A stretch of DNA of 7,572 nucleotides. Origin: a virus (Duplodnaviria; Heunggongvirae; Uroviricota; Caudoviricetes). The translations under genes were made by a program, and so were the position numbers. The stretch is taken from IMG/VR virus record IMGVR_UViG_2531839329_000009; one strand, given 5' to 3'. Of the stretch, positions 1 to 7,572 are shown one piece after another. Below the pieces are notes generated by a model. The model was not told the origin of the DNA and did not search any database. It saw only the letters and a list, made by a program, of their open reading frames with translations. Position 1 is the stretch's first letter. Every line of letters starts with the position of its first letter.

Positions 1-516
1 CCAGTTGCGCCGTCATGCGTGGCGACATTGCCCAGCCAATAACGGCACGTGACCACAGGTCAATGACCACTGCCAGATACAGCCAGCCTTCATCTGTACT
101 AAGTACGTGATGTCTCCTGCCCACTTCTGGTTCGGGCCACTGGCGTAAAAATCCTGCTCCAACAGATTTTCTGACACAGGCAGGCCGTGTGCGCGGTAGC
201 TGACCGGGCTGAACTTCCGGGAGGCCTTTGCCCTCAGTCCCTGACGGCGCAGGCTTGCCGCCACGGTTTTTACGTTAAAGGGGTAACCCTGAGCACGCAG
301 TTCATCCGTCAGGCGTGGGGCACCGTAACGCTGTTTTGACCGGGTAAAAGCCGCGAGGACAACGCTGTCGCAGTGTTGGCGGAACTGCTGACGCGTGCTT
401 ATCCTTGTCCGCCGCTGACACCACGTATACCAGCCGCTGCGGGCCACCCGGAACACGCGGCACATTGCTTTGATGCTGAACTCAGCCTGATGTTTTTCAA
501 TAAAGACATACTTCAT
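1..516 (-). pseudogene. insF: IS3 transposase OrfB (InsF), frameshifted and cut by the window edge
   Basis: The ATG-initiated frame (516 down to 13) matches InsF up to ...GDITYL, then diverges (VQMKAGCIW...) and stops at 13-15. The DDE-core sequence [31 protein letters not shown] continues in a different frame across 1-93, consistent with a 1-nt deletion near plus-strand 99/100. Confidence 0.7.
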
Positions 517-812
517 TTCAGGCGCTTCGCGAAGTATGTCGCGGCCTTTTGGAGGATAGCCAGCTCTTCATCCCGTTCTGCCAGCTGGCGTTTGAGACGT
601 GCAATCTCGGTAGACATCTCCAGTTCACGTTCAGAAGACGTCTGCTGATTTTGCTGTTTACTGCGCCAGTTGTAGAGTTGTGATTCATACAGGCTGAGTT
701 CACGGGCTGCGGCAGTAACACCGATGCGTTCAGCAAGCTTCAGGGCTTCACTGCGAAATTCAGGCGAATGCTGTTTACGGGGTTTTTTACTGGTTGATAC
801 TGTTTTTGTCAT
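513..812 (-). CDS. insE: IS3 transposase OrfA (InsE), 99 aa
   Basis: ATG at 812-810 preceded by AGGTG. The protein matches IS3 InsE essentially along its whole length from memory. The ORF track extends it to an in-frame GTG at 821. Confidence 0.9.
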
Positions 813-838
813 GTGAGTCACCTCTGACTGAGAGTTTA

Positions 839-3167: not shown

Positions 3168-3202
3168 GTGAAAATAAAAACATGCCGCAAGGCGCGGCAT
3201 GT
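3168..3202 (-). terminator. Hairpin with flanking A-tract; oriented like a minus-strand intrinsic terminator
   Basis: Perfect 9-bp stem ACATGCCGC (3180-3188) / GCGGCATGT (3194-3202) with 5-nt loop. The plus-strand A-rich run 3168-3180 becomes a U-tract only for minus-strand transcripts. No U-tract on the plus side. Confidence 0.35.
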
Positions 3203-3229
3203 ATCCAATCAATCACAGGAGCTGAAAAT

Positions 3230-3316
3230 ATGAACACGGCATTCAAAATCATTATGGCCGCGATCTATTTCTGGCTGTTCTCTATCACTTTTGGCGGCAT
3301 CGTCGCACATGGGTAA
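3230..3316 (+). CDS. Small hydrophobic peptide (28 aa, MNTAFKIIMAAIYFWLFSITFGGIVAHG); predicted single transmembrane helix
   Basis: ATG at 3230 with AGGAG at 3217-3221 (8-nt spacing). Stop TAA 3314-3316 lies inside the SD of the next gene. Too short for the ORF track. Confidence 0.4.
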   Translation: MNTAFKIIMAAIYFWLFSITFGGIVAHG

Positions 3317-4281: not shown

Positions 4282-4797
4282 ATGGCGTTAACACACCGCG
4301 AACTCTGTCAGATTGCGTACAAGTTCCTTAAGCGCAACGGGTTCAAGGTTTGTTTTCATGACCGCTTTATAGCTGTAACCAGTACCGGAGAACAGCCAGA
4401 TGCTATGGGATTCAGAAATTCAGCATCATGCCTGATAGAGGCGAAGTGTTCTCGTGCTGACTTGTTGGCAGATAGAAAAAAGCGTTTTCGTAAAAATCCG
4501 TCTCTTGGAATGGGCGACTGGCGATTCTTTATTAGTGAGCCGGGAATTATTTCAATTGAGGATTTACCACCTGGCTGGGGATTACTTCACGTTGTTAACG
4601 GAAGAGTACGGAAAGTACATGGGTGGCCCAAGGGTAATTGCTGTTGGGGTAATCCTGACGATAAGCCATTTACTGGAAATAAGCAGGTTGAATGCGATTA
4701 CATGTTATCTGCATTAAGGCGCATGGAGTTGAGAGGGCACCTTAATGAAATATATGACGGTGTAATTGTTAATAAGAAAGAAGGAAACGCGGCATGA
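4282..4797 (+). CDS. MmcB-like PD-(D/E)xK nuclease-fold protein, 171 aa
   Basis: Strong SD AGGAG (4271-4275) then ATG 4282. Motif ...GEQPDAMGF...CLIEAKCSRADLLADRKKRF gives D40 and E53-x-K55, the PD...(E)xK arrangement followed by the SRADL signature I associate with the MmcB-like family. Stop overlaps the next start (ATGA at 4794-4797). Confidence 0.75.
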   Translation: MALTHRELCQIAYKFLKRNGFKVCFHDRFIAVTSTGEQPDAMGFRNSASCLIEAKCSRADLLADRKKRFRKNPSLGMGDWRFFISEPGIISIEDLPPGWGLLHVVNGRVRKVHGWPKGNCCWGNPDDKPFTGNKQVECDYMLSALRRMELRGHLNEIYDGVIVNKKEGNAA

Positions 4798-5675
4798 CCA
4801 CTATTACCAAAGAGCGACTACTGACAATCAAGCAGTGGCGCGAAACATACGGACCTGGTAGCAACGTTGTACTGCCAGCAGAAGAAGCGGAAGAACTGGC
4901 ACGAATTGCTCTGGCATCACTGGAAGCAAAACCAATAGGTGCATTCCACATTGCAGAACAGCAAGTTGACGGCACAAGTGACTACCTCAAGGATGGAGAA
5001 TGGCCTATTGATAATGGAATTATTGAGGTCTACGCCGCTCCCCCCGTTCCAGTAGTACCGGAAGAAAAACCAATGCCTAACGCTCTAAGCATGCTTGAAA
5101 GAGAGATCACACAACTGATTGGTGATGCGCAGGAAGCCACTGTTACTGGCTATGAGTTAATCGCTGAAGCTTGGCGTTTGATGGATGGACAAGACCCTAA
5201 AACCAGCGATTGGCATAGCAAGGCTTCGAAGTATTTAAATTCCAATATTGTAGAAAAAGTTGATGATGACCGTATTGATGCAATTAAGGCTGTTTTGCGT
5301 AGACTGGCTGGCAACTATCCGGATATTCCGGATAGTTCGGTGCCTACGCCAGGAAAGGGCGTCACCGGTGAACGTATCCGCATTAAGCCGCATGTTTATC
5401 GCGAACTGGTTAACCGTCTCCACGATACAGCGATCAAGTGTGCTGGCACCCAGCAATTACGAGAAAGAATTAGCCGTGTTTTGGGCGACGTTATTACGCC
5501 ATATCATCATAAACAAGCCGAGAAAAGCGGTCTGGAAAGGTGTCATCTTGAGGCAGCATTAAACATTAAGCCGGGGCATACGCTTGGCATTATTGATGCA
5601 CTGTTGGTTCATAAGATGGCCAGGGCTTTATTGTCGTTGGTGGACGCTGGTGATACAAGCGAGGGTGAAGTATGA
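4794..5675 (+). CDS. Hypothetical protein, 293 aa, acidic, no recognisable motif
   Basis: ATG 4794 with AAGGA 8 nt upstream. Translationally coupled on both sides (ATGA overlaps at 4794-4797 and 5672-5675). Composition is protein-like throughout. Confidence 0.75.
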   Translation: MTTITKERLLTIKQWRETYGPGSNVVLPAEEAEELARIALASLEAKPIGAFHIAEQQVDGTSDYLKDGEWPIDNGIIEVYAAPPVPVVPEEKPMPNALSMLEREITQLIGDAQEATVTGYELIAEAWRLMDGQDPKTSDWHSKASKYLNSNIVEKVDDDRIDAIKAVLRRLAGNYPDIPDSSVPTPGKGVTGERIRIKPHVYRELVNRLHDTAIKCAGTQQLRERISRVLGDVITPYHHKQAEKSGLERCHLEAALNIKPGHTLGIIDALLVHKMARALLSLVDAGDTSEGEV

Positions 5676-6034
5676 GAGTTGCAGATCACATCAAACACCT
5701 TGAAAGAATTATCGAAAACGGTGAACTCTTAAGAGATCAGATGAGACGCACGGCAGAAGCCAGGGAGGCGATAATCCGCAGTCAGGCTGGTAAATTAAAG
5801 CAATTGTCAGAGATTAACACGCTATACAAGAACAGACGTAACCGGGCGGTGATGCGGCTTCAGAAAGCACGTAATGAAATTAAATTGGTGGAGGCAAAAC
5901 TGAAAAAACAGATCCAGCGTTACGATCAGCAAGATGCTTTTTATGCCGCCATCAAGGCGGCTGCTAATGAAATAGGCATCTGGAAGTTGCTGGTGGAGAA
6001 AGCAAAGACGAAGTTAAATGCCAACGAAAGCTGA
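5672..6034 (+). CDS. Hypothetical basic coiled-coil protein, 120 aa
   Basis: ATG 5672 overlapping the upstream stop, with GAGGG upstream. Charged heptad-like sequence (LRDQMRRTAEAREAIIRSQAGKLKQL..., EIKLVEAKLKKQIQRYDQQ). Last gene of the coupled operon. Confidence 0.7.
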   Translation: MRVADHIKHLERIIENGELLRDQMRRTAEAREAIIRSQAGKLKQLSEINTLYKNRRNRAVMRLQKARNEIKLVEAKLKKQIQRYDQQDAFYAAIKAAANEIGIWKLLVEKAKTKLNANES

Positions 6035-6093
6035 ACTACAGGTGCCCACCAGCACATACAGAAAATGATTGTTTCCACATCAAGGAGATTTTA

Positions 6094-6110
6094 ATGTTTC
6101 ACTGAAACAT
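6094..6110. promoter_or_regulatory. Perfect 17-bp palindrome ATGTTTCA-c-TGAAACAT
   Basis: Read directly from the sequence. It sits where the plus-strand operon and the minus-strand small ORF converge and overlaps that ORF's stop codon (6110-6112). The same half-site recurs at 6361-6378. Confidence 0.3.
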
Positions 6111-6247
6111 TAAGTAAGCCAGTGCATAATTCCATTTTTTACTGACCTTAAAAGCAAAATCAAAACGATGATGAGGATAATAGCCAGAATCTGGCTAATA
6201 ATAGGCGCATCTAAAAATGCACTCAGGAACTGAAAAAAAGCGTTCAT
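6110..6247 (-). CDS. Small hydrophobic protein, 45 aa (MNAFFQFLSAFLDAPIISQILAIILIIVLILLLRSVKNGIMHWLT); single TM helix then basic tail
   Basis: Minus-strand ATG at 6247-6245 with AAGGA about 9 nt upstream. Below the ORF-track size cutoff. An AT-rich context can produce hydrophobic ORFs by chance, so this is tentative. Confidence 0.35.
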   Translation of the reverse strand: MNAFFQFLSAFLDAPIISQILAIILIIVLILLLRSVKNGIMHWLT

Positions 6248-6360
6248 TCAGGTGGTTCCTTGTCAAATGTAAAGGTGCACTTGCTCACGTTGACGTAGAA
6301 ACCCAACCCCTATATAGTTGGATTCGGTGAATGAAAGTCGTTAACGTGAGCTTACGGCAC

Positions 6361-6378
6361 ATGTTTTCGGAAAAACAT
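6361..6378. promoter_or_regulatory. Inverted repeat ATGTTTT-cgga-AAAACAT, related to the 6094-6110 palindrome
   Basis: 7-bp arms with a 4-nt spacer. Lies ~115 bp upstream of the minus-strand small ORF start, inside the AT-rich region. Confidence 0.3.
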
Positions 6379-6735
6379 CAGGGAACGGCTAATTCCTTGA
6401 TGCGGGTGGGGTCTGTAATGCAGACCCTATCTATTAACGTCATGATTGCATCTCAAATTTTCTCCTTATCTTCAATTAATCTACATTCATTTCATCTGTT
6501 AGCCACCACAATATGTAGAAAATGGCCCTCTTGCAAGTGCATAACTTTGTGGATAACTCAGGAAGGAAAAAGTGGCTTTCGCGCACCTTCGGTCAGACAA
6601 GGTGTCCGGGAAAGTCAACGCAAAGAAAAAAATTGTTAAAAATAACGTTTGTTGGAATTGTATATTTTTATCCCCTTCAAACATCTTTTTTTAGAGACAG
6701 AAAAACATATCGTAACAACATATATACAGTATTAA

Positions 6736-6966
6736 GAGGCGAGTATTATCCTGCGGTGGGAATTCTGGGCGCTGTTAGATTCGACTTTCTCAGCAGGATT
6801 ACATCGTCAACTTGCGACGTTGCCGTATGACTTTCGTGTAATAGGTGACAATGATGCGGCTAGTGAGTTACTTGTGAAGTTTTTCGGAAAAGGTTTTGTG
6901 GCCTCGGATCTTGATGAGCTACAGCAACATGAAGTGTCTAATTTGATTTTTAGCCATAGCCAATAA
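6736..6966 (+). other. Open frame (76 codons) with protein-like composition but no ATG/GTG near its 5' end; possible small protein with unusual start, or gene remnant
   Basis: Frame open from 6736 to stop TAA 6964-6966 (...ILRWEFWALLDSTFSAGLHRQLATLPYDFRVIGDNDAASELLVKFFGKGFVASDLDELQQHEVSNLIFSHSQ). SD-like AAGAGG at 6734-6739 is followed only by ATT/ATC/CTG codons at 6745-6753. Terminator-like hairpin downstream. Confidence 0.3.
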
Positions 6967-7092: not shown

Positions 7093-7271
7093 TTATGACC
7101 GTAAATTATTAGCGGATTTTAAGCCATATTCACCGTTGTAGAAATTACTCATGTTCCATTCATTAGGAAGTTCTTTTCTGTCCAATGTATAGTGGCGCAC
7201 GATATAACGATCTTCATCTTCTTCGATGGACAGGCGGACATAGCCAATGTGAATCACCGATACGGGCGGTG
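7093..7271 (-). pseudogene. 3' remnant (58 codons) of a minus-strand ORF truncated by the IS1 insertion
   Basis: Minus-strand frame is open from the IS1 junction to stop at 7095-7093 (...VSVIHIGYVRLSIEEDEDRYIVRHYTLDRKELPNEWNMSNFYNGEYGLKSANNLRS). The same frame runs on into IS1 sequence, so the 5' part is missing. No start codon available. Confidence 0.3.
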
Positions 7272-7294
7272 GGTGATGATGCCAACTTACTGAT
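7272..7294 (+). repeat. IS1 left terminal inverted repeat (23 bp)
   Basis: GGTGATGATGCCAACTTACTGAT at 7272-7294. The flanking sequence ...CGGGCGGTG is unrelated to IS1. Confidence 0.8.
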
Positions 7295-7326
7295 TTAGTG
7301 TATGATGGTGTTTTTGAGGTGCTCCA

Positions 7327-7572
7327 GTGGCTTCTGTTTCTATCAGCTGTCCCTCCTGTTCAGCTACTGACGGGGTGGTGCGTAACGGCAAAAGCACTGC
7401 CGGACATCAGCGCTATCTCTGCTCTCACTGCCGTAAAACATGGCAACTGCAGTTCACTTACACCGCTTCTCAACCCGGTACGCACCAGAAAATCATTGAT
7501 ATGGCCATGAATGGCGTTGGATGCCGGGCAACTGCCCGCATTATGGGCGTTGGCCTCAACACGATTTTACGT
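7327..7572 (+). CDS. insA: IS1 InsA, 3'-partial (first 82 of 91 codons)
   Basis: GTG start at 7327 translates to [43 protein letters not shown]...GVGLNTILR. The track ORF 7298-7510 is in a different frame and is not InsA. Confidence 0.85.

Follow-up and report, generated by a model that had tools for sequence, protein, structure and literature searches.

The window analysed here is the 7,572-nt stretch of the IMG/VR virus record IMGVR_UViG_2531839329_000009 and, to judge from its closest matches, it is DNA of a P7/P1-type phage-plasmid. Several E. coli plasmids of 61-143 kb match positions 5600-6800 with 100% identity, and one of them carries humD, phd/doc, lpa, pacA/pacB and c1 as neighbour genes. 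The identity of this region is 98.7% to phage P7 and about 94% to phage P1. P1 is a classical model phage and a workhorse of cloning and transduction, and P1-like phage-plasmids are increasingly recognised as carriers of resistance genes. The segment of interest contains, on the minus strand, an open reading frame (ORF) for a hydrophobic peptide of 45 amino acids (aa), an nrdA-type promoter that points at this ORF and, on the opposite strand between the two, a strongly conserved promoter followed by three predicted RNA hairpins (Table 1). This arrangement gives about an even chance that the locus is a type I toxin-antitoxin-like module, in which a membrane peptide would stand under the control of an antisense RNA.

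Three lineages of the stretch were found in PLSDB, IMG/VR and metagenomes: a P7-type lineage (at least 99% identity), which includes the window, a P1-type lineage (some 97% across window 6035-6400) and a divergent group, made up of about 30 plasmids with approximately 79% identity and referred to here as the 79% lineage. Further searches, with two conserved words against IMG/VR and one against metagenomes, added no lineage to these three, a peptide-pattern scan of GTDB representative genomes gave no match, and the sole match of a 19-mer scan of genome contigs (L064) was rejected as a chance match in unrelated sequence. The stretch is absent entirely from D6 and RCS47. Since the left neighbours in the 79% lineage differ, consisting of a 71-aa ORF and hsdM/hsdS, and homology between the lineages starts on the left at about window 6046, the stretch is best described, from these comparisons, as a discrete accessory cassette of about 600 bp (about 6046-6650) of P1/P7-type phage-plasmids. 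In the 79% lineage (loci L088-L095), this cassette is flanked by hot and by the type I restriction-modification operon hsdM/hsdS, which takes the place of the pmgT-pmgV genes and agrees with the notes on EcoDXXI hsd homology in the P1 record. The region counts among those that are hypervariable in P1-like plasmids (PMC9603915). CRISPR interference and deletion surveys found the upf genes annotated there to be dispensable for lytic growth and plaque formation (PMC10695390), a result that does not discriminate between the models considered below.

The existing annotation of the same DNA in P1 (NC_005856.1; Lobocka et al. 2004) lists pmgV (window 5672-6034), the predicted promoters P2upfM and P1upfM, upfM (6217-6330, plus strand), the predicted promoter PupfN (6290-6318), upfN, upfO and then, in P1, hot. 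It thereby already predicted PupfN, and it also noted the homology to the E. coli DnaA box, but it differs from the present analysis in placing three ORFs on the plus strand of the stretch and none on the minus strand, which is without any feature; P7 is annotated likewise. The frames of upfM (phrog_31823) and upfN are broken by indels in the 79% lineage and are not conserved, and the plus-strand candidates upfM, upfN and a third beginning MQTLS were rejected as frame-broken or lacking a coding signal. The promoters P1upfM and P2upfM are likewise not conserved in the 79% lineage.

By coordinate arithmetic, the minus-strand ORF corresponds to complement(85992..86129) of NC_005856.1. An earlier note on this DNA, made from the letters alone, had described it as encoding a single-helix membrane peptide with a basic tail, and the sequence is consistent with it: the peptide, MNAFFQFLSAFLDAPIISQILAIILIIVLILLLRSVKNGIMHWLT, has a hydrophobic segment with a mean Kyte-Doolittle value of 3.1, followed on the C-terminal side by a charge of +2 to +3. 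The frame is kept in relatives, being open and of the same length in both deep clades with its ATG, stop codon and Shine-Dalgarno (SD) sequence conserved, and it is intact in 71 of the 72 loci that contain the full region. It is free of indels, while its flanks carry several, including a 1-nt indel between the SD and the ATG that also breaks upfM on the other strand and another that breaks upfN; an indel between SD and AUG is consistent with non-coding sequence upstream of the start. In a neutral simulation in which the 33 observed substitutions were placed randomly, 7.7% of runs left the ORF intact, 1.5% left it intact with a BLOSUM score that was at least as high (joint P ~0.015) and 2.9% left it intact and equally hydrophobic. 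In addition, the Prokaryotic Genome Annotation Pipeline calls the ORF as a hypothetical protein in P1-type (WP_000123562.1) and 79%-lineage plasmids. The coding evidence drawn from these comparisons is moderate, and the ORF is probably translated.

The 3' end of this ORF is repeatedly disrupted in natural copies. In the metagenome contig OGIW01000442.1 (L085, P1 clade), the terminus of an IS1 insertion sequence (IS) was confirmed at codon 39, giving the tail VMTPTY*, and the same tail occurs at codon 36 of P0003 (79% clade), where the presence of IS1 is deduced from the tail only. Among P0001, P0002 and P0004 there are two frameshift variants, and the tail of P0002 is replaced by one of no identified origin. 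Such disruptions could mean that a harmful gene was inactivated, or no more than that IS1 met an AT-rich target. The ORF also contains a near-perfect inverted repeat, TAATAGCCAGA-a-TCTGGCTAATA (6178-6200), of which the 79% lineage keeps only the 4-bp core GCCA/UGGC.

The strongest constraint of the locus is not on the ORF but on the block 6283-6372, where the clades have 4% fixed differences; the ORF has 22% and the flanks have 24-31%. Here lies the antisense promoter, the region's best sigma-70 match (10/12; score 12.6), which is intact in all 72 loci. The RNA of about 110 nt predicted to start from it, at approximately 6325, folds better than shuffled sequences (z = -4.6), and the same three hairpins (hp1 to hp3) are recovered when the three lineages are folded separately and in the consensus fold. 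Variation within this RNA is confined to loops and linkers, and hp3 carries a compensatory U-A to C-G change at 6412:6424. All three hairpins are more stable as plus-strand RNA in every lineage, with hp3 reaching about -20 kcal/mol on this strand compared with -12 to -14 kcal/mol as minus-strand RNA. Together with the UAUCUAUU that follows it, hp3 is a plausible candidate for a non-canonical terminator of the antisense RNA.

The promoter facing the ORF from the right is of host origin. The segment resembling the nrdA upstream region matches all 5,426 E. coli genomes and, as nrdA is read on the minus strand in the orientation of the window, the captured promoter region (6508-6556, core promoter and DnaA box) points at the 45-aa ORF. 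The DnaA box TTATCCACA, the -35 element TTGCAA and the 17-nt spacer are identical to those in the nrdAB promoter from E. coli, with which the cassette shares about 93% identity over approximately 140 bp upstream, and the -10 element TATTGT replaces TATCTT of E. coli. The core promoter is conserved in position across all three lineages. Homology to E. coli stops at about -10, and NrdR boxes 1 and 2 are absent. The -10 element and start of E. coli nrdA lie within the NrdR 'box 0' (PMC13584703; PMC12176259), and the functional boxes 1 and 2 are located downstream of the start (PMC12176259). Under the criterion of two boxes 15-16 bp apart, with a spacing of 26-27 bp also inspected (PMC13584703), no partner box was seen at either distance on reading the sequence by eye. 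Since boxes 1 and 2 were not captured and no partner box was seen, control by NrdR is not predicted. The phage copy of box 0, TTTCTACATATTGTGG (6505-6520, minus strand), holds all six conserved NrdR-box positions including A6, whereas the non-functional E. coli box 0 has C6. A possible LexA box near 6714-6729 was rejected by eye, as no CTG occurs at the required spacing. The plus-strand ORF 6522-6830 (upfO of P1) starts inside the spacer of this promoter and is a homologue of E. coli ypaB, so UpfO of P1 would be a captured copy of YpaB and not a phage invention.

Both transcripts, with their ends, are predicted from the sequence. The 5' end of the mRNA is taken from the nrdA-type promoter, whose start at about 6501 implies a leader of 254 nt, and its 3' end from the left homology boundary and the pairing of the two ends described below. 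Another minus-strand promoter, TTGAGA-17-TAGATA (6456-6428), is conserved but weak, lacking the final T, and is considered an alternative start only. The segment 6440-6070 folds far better than shuffled sequences (z = -5.9). An invariant element in the leader combines an SD with an AUG that opens the short frame MQS* in P1 and P7 and, in the 79% lineage, is followed at once by the stop codon (AUG UAA; M*). This AUG overlaps (AUGA) the start of a 21-aa ORF, MTLIDRVCITDPTRIKELAVP (6443-6378), which is open in both clades and shows no coding constraint (6 non-synonymous versus 1 synonymous change); the SD-AUG pair may be a ribosome-loading or standby element.

When the predicted mRNA was folded from 6501 to 6050 for each lineage separately, its extreme 5' end paired with its extreme 3' end in all three. 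In the window, ACAGA/AAAUGA pairs with UCUGU/UCAUUU (-12.2 kcal/mol; P=0.03 against shuffles), and in the 79% lineage ACACACAG/AAUGG pairs with UUGUGUGU/CCAUU over 17 bp (-23.5 kcal/mol; P<0.0005). Among about 73 alternative target windows in the mRNA, none pairs better in any lineage. The pair 6487:6068 shows a compensatory A-U to G-C change, and the paired ends coincide with two independent landmarks, namely the start deduced from the promoter and the homology boundary. A second 3' element, UCUCCUUGAUGUGG, can pair with CCGCAUCAAGGA (6405-6394) or with the invariant SD of the leader (6468-6461). On the minus strand, long-range contacts are at least as good as on the plus strand. The winning helix varies by lineage and by fold setting, and only the 5'-3' interaction, not an exact secondary structure, is therefore taken as supported. 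The pair of segments 6075-6086 and 6394-6405 (I6) was also considered as the terminal inverted repeats of a mobile element and rejected, given that homology runs past both arms.

The earlier note had started from two palindromes that bracket the ORF, read as related by a common half-site and possibly bound by one dimeric regulator or formed as RNA hairpins. Palindrome 1, ATGTTTCA-c-TGAAACAT (6094-6110), is present and perfect as described and even extends to perfect 11-nt arms (6091-6101/6103-6113; 23 bp), an inverted repeat found in none of 200 dinucleotide shuffles of the window. Palindrome 2, ATGTTTT-cgga-AAAACAT, is also present as described; repeats of its kind (7-nt arms, loop of at most 4) occur in 87% of the shuffles, with a mean of 2.65 per window, and it is a chance-level inverted repeat. 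The two have only ATGTTT in common, and a search for ATGTTTCA with at most one mismatch gave 10 occurrences against 9.3 expected, so that the proposed relationship is not supported. Nor are the palindromes kept in homologous loci: the right arm of palindrome 2 is already mismatched in P1 (AACAACAT) and the palindrome is unrecognisable in the 79% lineage, while palindrome 1 has lost 1 nt in 16 P1-type loci (five haplotypes) and, in the 79% lineage, has decayed to TTAATATCTCAGCGCGACATTAA, its half-site sequence not being conserved.

Folded as RNA, palindrome 1 of the 79% lineage forms an 8-bp hairpin on the minus strand only (-5.6 versus -0.4 kcal/mol), in which one G.U pair and a single compensatory change from U-A to C-G maintain the pairing. 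This points to an RNA stem-loop that overlaps the stop codon of the minus-strand transcript and argues against a DNA operator at this position. The suggestion of RNA hairpins is thus borne out for palindrome 1 and not for palindrome 2, which forms no helix in the predicted folds. As an intrinsic terminator, palindrome 1 is unsuited, its stem being AU-rich (-8 kcal/mol) and neither strand having a U-tract. A reading as a Cra- or CRP-type site was rejected because the sequence is not conserved; the half-site order of such sites presumably does not fit either. The AAGGAG (6082-6087) that the earlier note had seen 6 nt before a plus-strand mini-ORF, ATG TTT CAC TGA, does exist, and both its SD and its ATG are retained in the P1-type lineage; conservation ends in the 79% lineage, where they read AAGGGAA and ATA. 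The complement of this SD (CUCCUU, 6087-6082) is better read as an anti-SD that the minus-strand mRNA carries in its 3' untranslated region (UTR). Outside the earlier interpretation lie those elements that seem to exert the regulation, namely the antisense promoter, the nrdA promoter and the 5'-3' pairing. A second perfect palindrome with 11-nt arms, AACTATCCGGA-tat-TCCGGATAGTT (window 5313-5337), is located inside a 293-aa ORF (4794-5675) and is as improbable by chance as palindrome 1.

Table 1. Features of the cassette and of its predicted transcripts, by position in the window.
Feature	Position	Strand	Remarks
Predicted mRNA, ~455 nt	6046-6501	minus	254-nt leader, 45-aa ORF, ~60-nt 3' UTR
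Extreme 3' segment of the module	6053-6068	minus	pairs with the predicted 5' end
Anti-SD element of the 3' UTR, UCUCCUUGAUGUGG	6075-6088	minus	complement of the plus-strand SD of the earlier note
AAGGAG and mini-ORF, not conserved	6082-6105	plus	from lineage comparison
Palindrome 1, putative stem-loop	6091-6113	minus	from shuffles and per-lineage RNA folds
45-aa ORF	6110-6247	minus	hydrophobic segment at residues 15-33, basic C-terminal tail
SD of the 45-aa ORF, AAGGAA (GAGGA in the 79% lineage)	6256-6261	minus	9 nt upstream of the start
Most conserved block	6283-6372	none	4% fixed differences between clades
Antisense promoter TTGACG-17-TATAGT (PupfN of P1)	6290-6318	plus	inside the leader of the minus-strand mRNA
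Predicted antisense RNA, ~110 nt	6325-6432	plus	three hairpins; start ~6325
hp1	6338-6370	plus	predicted hairpin of the antisense RNA
Palindrome 2, chance-level	6361-6378	none	left arm in invariant block, right arm in variable linker
hp2	6376-6402	plus	predicted hairpin of the antisense RNA
hp3	6404-6432	plus	GC-rich, core 6409-6415/6421-6427, then UAUCUAUU
Invariant leader element	6449-6467	minus	SD AAGGAG 6467-6462, 10 nt, AUG 6451-6449
5' segment of the predicted mRNA	6487-6501	minus	pairs with 6053-6068
nrdA-type core promoter	6508-6536	minus	-35 TTGCAA 6536-6531, 17-nt spacer, -10 TATTGT 6513-6508
Host-derived segment, ~93% identical to the E. coli nrdA upstream region	6511-6649	none	overlaps ypaB
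Consensus DnaA box TTATCCACA	6548-6556	minus	upstream of the -35; invariant in three lineages

Read directly from the DNA are an open hydrophobic ORF, an invariant antisense promoter, an nrdA-type promoter and strand-specific RNA structure on both strands. In the mechanism proposed from them, the captured nrdA promoter would fire on the minus strand at about 6501 and yield the mRNA of approximately 455 nt, which would encode the putative membrane peptide behind its structured leader and end at about 6046. In the full-length mRNA, the 5' end would pair with the 3' end, the anti-SD would pair with SD-like sequences of the leader and palindrome 1 would form a stem-loop at the stop codon, resulting in a compact, translationally quiet fold-back form like that of hok mRNA. 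From the opposite strand, the antisense promoter would produce the three-hairpin RNA, fully complementary to the leader from about +70 to +177, and the resulting duplex would block ribosome access or trigger cleavage, so that the peptide is kept off. Analogy alone suggests that the peptide is toxic and that it is repressed by the antisense RNA. Its likeliest role would be that of a toxin acting on the membrane, which would serve plasmid addiction or a growth arrest triggered by stress, and the nrdA-type promoter would couple its production to DnaA and the state of replication.

In architecture, the cassette is closest to hok/sok of plasmid R1 and, in geometry, also to ldr/rdl. Features in common with hok/sok include a low-copy plasmid as carrier, a small single-helix membrane peptide, an mRNA of about 400-450 nt with a long leader, an antisense promoter embedded in this leader in the opposite direction, predicted end pairing that resembles tac/fbi, and 3' elements complementary to SD-like sequences. 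There are also differences: three variants of the peptide gave no Hok/Gef (PF01848) match in Pfam at E<=10, an Rfam scan of 6000-6700 at E<=1 returned neither Sok nor hok RNA nor any other family, and no mok-like overlapping frame is seen, since at least 130 nt separate the ends of the leader ORFs (6451-6440 and 6443-6378) from the downstream AUG of the putative toxin. In addition, the promoter of the cassette's putative toxin gene is a captured host promoter. As in ldrD/rdlD, tisB/istR-1, dinQ/agrB and zorO/orzO, the antisense RNA would target the 5' UTR well upstream of the toxin SD, and the peptide resembles chromosomal type I toxins in its length below 50 aa and its basic or aromatic C-terminus. 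The residues DAPI are taken here as loosely recalling the AP[IL] motif of Ldr and Fst, a presumed likeness that hidden Markov models do not support, given that models of Ldr, Fst, TisB and other toxins gave no match to the peptide. The toxin promoters of tisB and dinQ are stress-responsive through LexA, whereas that of the cassette is of the DnaA/nrdA type; unlike the chromosomal systems, the predicted antisense RNA is cis-encoded with full complementarity over about 105 nt and resides on a phage-plasmid. Because the peptide, RNA and mok tests of the hok/sok and ldr/rdl families fail, the cassette is placed in the general type I toxin-antitoxin kind, of which it has the small (<60 aa) hydrophobic ORF with its own SD and start codon and, with moderate strength, the maintenance of this ORF in relatives. 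From the earlier proposal of a small toxin-like gene, the ORF, which is probably real, and the type I toxin-like architecture are retained.

Several results weigh against a type I module. Concerning the transcripts, the -10 element of the nrdA-type promoter matches only 4/6 positions and reads TACTGT in the 79% lineage, and hp3 was not called by a terminator scan and lacks a canonical U-tract. The 5'-3' pairing of P1 itself, CACA/AAAUGA with UGUG/UCAUUU, is marginal (-7.5 kcal/mol; P=0.1 against shuffles), and the 3' element is alike across lineages, so that cross-lineage duplexes also form. The variation of the winning long-range helix, mentioned above, belongs here as well, as does the thin covariation of one or two compensatory pairs per RNA with weak shuffle controls, a statistical weakness explained by there being effectively two deep lineages. 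For the peptide, the ratio of non-synonymous to synonymous substitution rates (dN/dS) is 0.41 and not clearly below that of other frames, and the nucleotide divergence of the ORF is about equal to that of its flanks. Word-indexed and exhaustive phmmer searches found no peptide relatives outside P1-like elements, returning only P1-family variants with damaged C-termini, and scans of Pfam, PHROGs, NCBIfam and PADLOC gave no toxin-family match but only weak matches generic to transmembrane segments. Finally, the literature searched contained no paper linking P1-like elements with a type I system.

The alternative that survives best, although rather unlikely, keeps the same RNA architecture and regards the peptide as a benign small membrane protein, neither a toxin nor an addiction module, which could modulate a membrane transporter or sensor, or take part in exclusion or in the timing of lysis. 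Non-toxic examples are numerous among the small membrane proteins of enterobacteria, and the missing toxin-family match, a constraint that falls on length and hydrophobicity rather than on sequence, and the fact that P1 already has phd/doc for addiction all speak for such a role. However, a constitutive-looking, invariant antisense promoter in a long fold-back leader is a hallmark of type I systems and unusual for benign proteins, and the disruption of the 3' end of the ORF by IS1 or frameshifts recurs as with toxin genes, albeit anecdotally.

Unlikely, too, is a locus that consists of RNA and promoters alone, in which the antisense promoter drives a leader or attenuator for the upfO/ypaB-like gene and hot, the convergent nrdA-type promoter interferes with it, and the ORF remains untranslated. 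It would account for the strongest conservation lying on promoter and hairpins instead of the ORF, for the position of hot 300-400 nt downstream on the plus strand in P1 and the 79% lineage, and for a dN/dS that does not separate the frames; hp3 is, moreover, a weak terminator that makes read-through plausible. Nevertheless, promoter and hairpins are unchanged in the P7-type lineage, including the window, which has no hot. The plus-strand frames upfM and upfN are broken between lineages, whereas the minus-strand ORF keeps its SD, ATG, stop, length and freedom from indels. Furthermore, the homology of the cassette reaches about 200 nt further left than a plus-strand leader would require, as do the 5'-3' pairing and the hairpin at the stop codon, which is specific to the minus strand. 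The conservation of everything in the P7-type lineage without hot and these features to the left of the ORF start are the reasons why a leader of hot is disfavoured.

A non-functional mosaic of recombination joints and a captured host fragment, with the conserved block the product of recent exchange, is very improbable. The hypervariability of the region, the IS elements that flank it in this window and the dispensability of its genes for lytic growth are in line with a mosaic, yet conservation is patchy and tracks hexamers and stems versus loops rather than one contiguous identical tract, both strands fold far better than shuffled sequences, and the 5'-3' complementarity recurs with different sequences across lineages. 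The model of the earlier note, in which the palindromes serve as operators of one dimeric regulator for the small ORF, is hardly credible, since against the statistically exceptional palindrome 1 of this lineage stand a chance-level palindrome 2 already broken in P1, a half-site that is neither enriched nor conserved in the 79% lineage, a deletion in palindrome 1 tolerated by 16 P1-type loci, and changes in the divergent lineage that preserve pairing in minus-strand RNA only.

If the cassette is a type I toxin-antitoxin-like module, P1 would possess, beside humD and phd/doc, a membrane peptide under RNA control that has gone unrecognised. The curated annotation of upfM, upfN and upfO would then need replacing, a mobile element would have captured a replication-linked host promoter (nrdA with its DnaA box) for a toxin-like gene, and hok-like control by 5'-3' fold-back would have arisen with an unrelated peptide. 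More tentative, and rather less likely than not, is the reading of the cassette as a second RNA-controlled killer module of P1-type phage-plasmids, whose hok-like fold-back evolved independently and which is triggered by replication stress or plasmid loss. Its promoter would have been copied from the ribonucleotide-reductase gene of the host, so that peptide production would reflect DnaA and replication status, and one of the best-studied phages would hold a membrane toxin hidden under three mis-stranded 'upf' ORFs. The predictions of the module are concrete: a pair of transcripts whose ends are defined, a single start codon and a single antisense -10 box.

Outside the cassette, the right end of the window (7272-7572) is the left end of IS1, with one mismatch in the terminal sequence. 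This insertion truncates a minus-strand gene that occupies 7093-7449 in a related plasmid and leaves a 54-aa ORF (7093-7257) here. At the left end, window 13-821 carries IS3-family transposase genes on the minus strand, comprising orfA with an HTH_Tnp_1 domain and the start of orfB with HTH_21, so that the P1-type segment is bracketed by insertion sequences. In Rfam, window 3174-3257 (minus strand) gave a weak GcvB-like match, far below gathering at E=0.39, that stems mainly from a clean hairpin resembling a terminator, CAUGCCGCGCCUUGCGGCAUG, with UUUUUAU after it. This hairpin is located between a pap-like gene and the gene in the position of pmgT, near the place of the C1 operator Op88 in P1.

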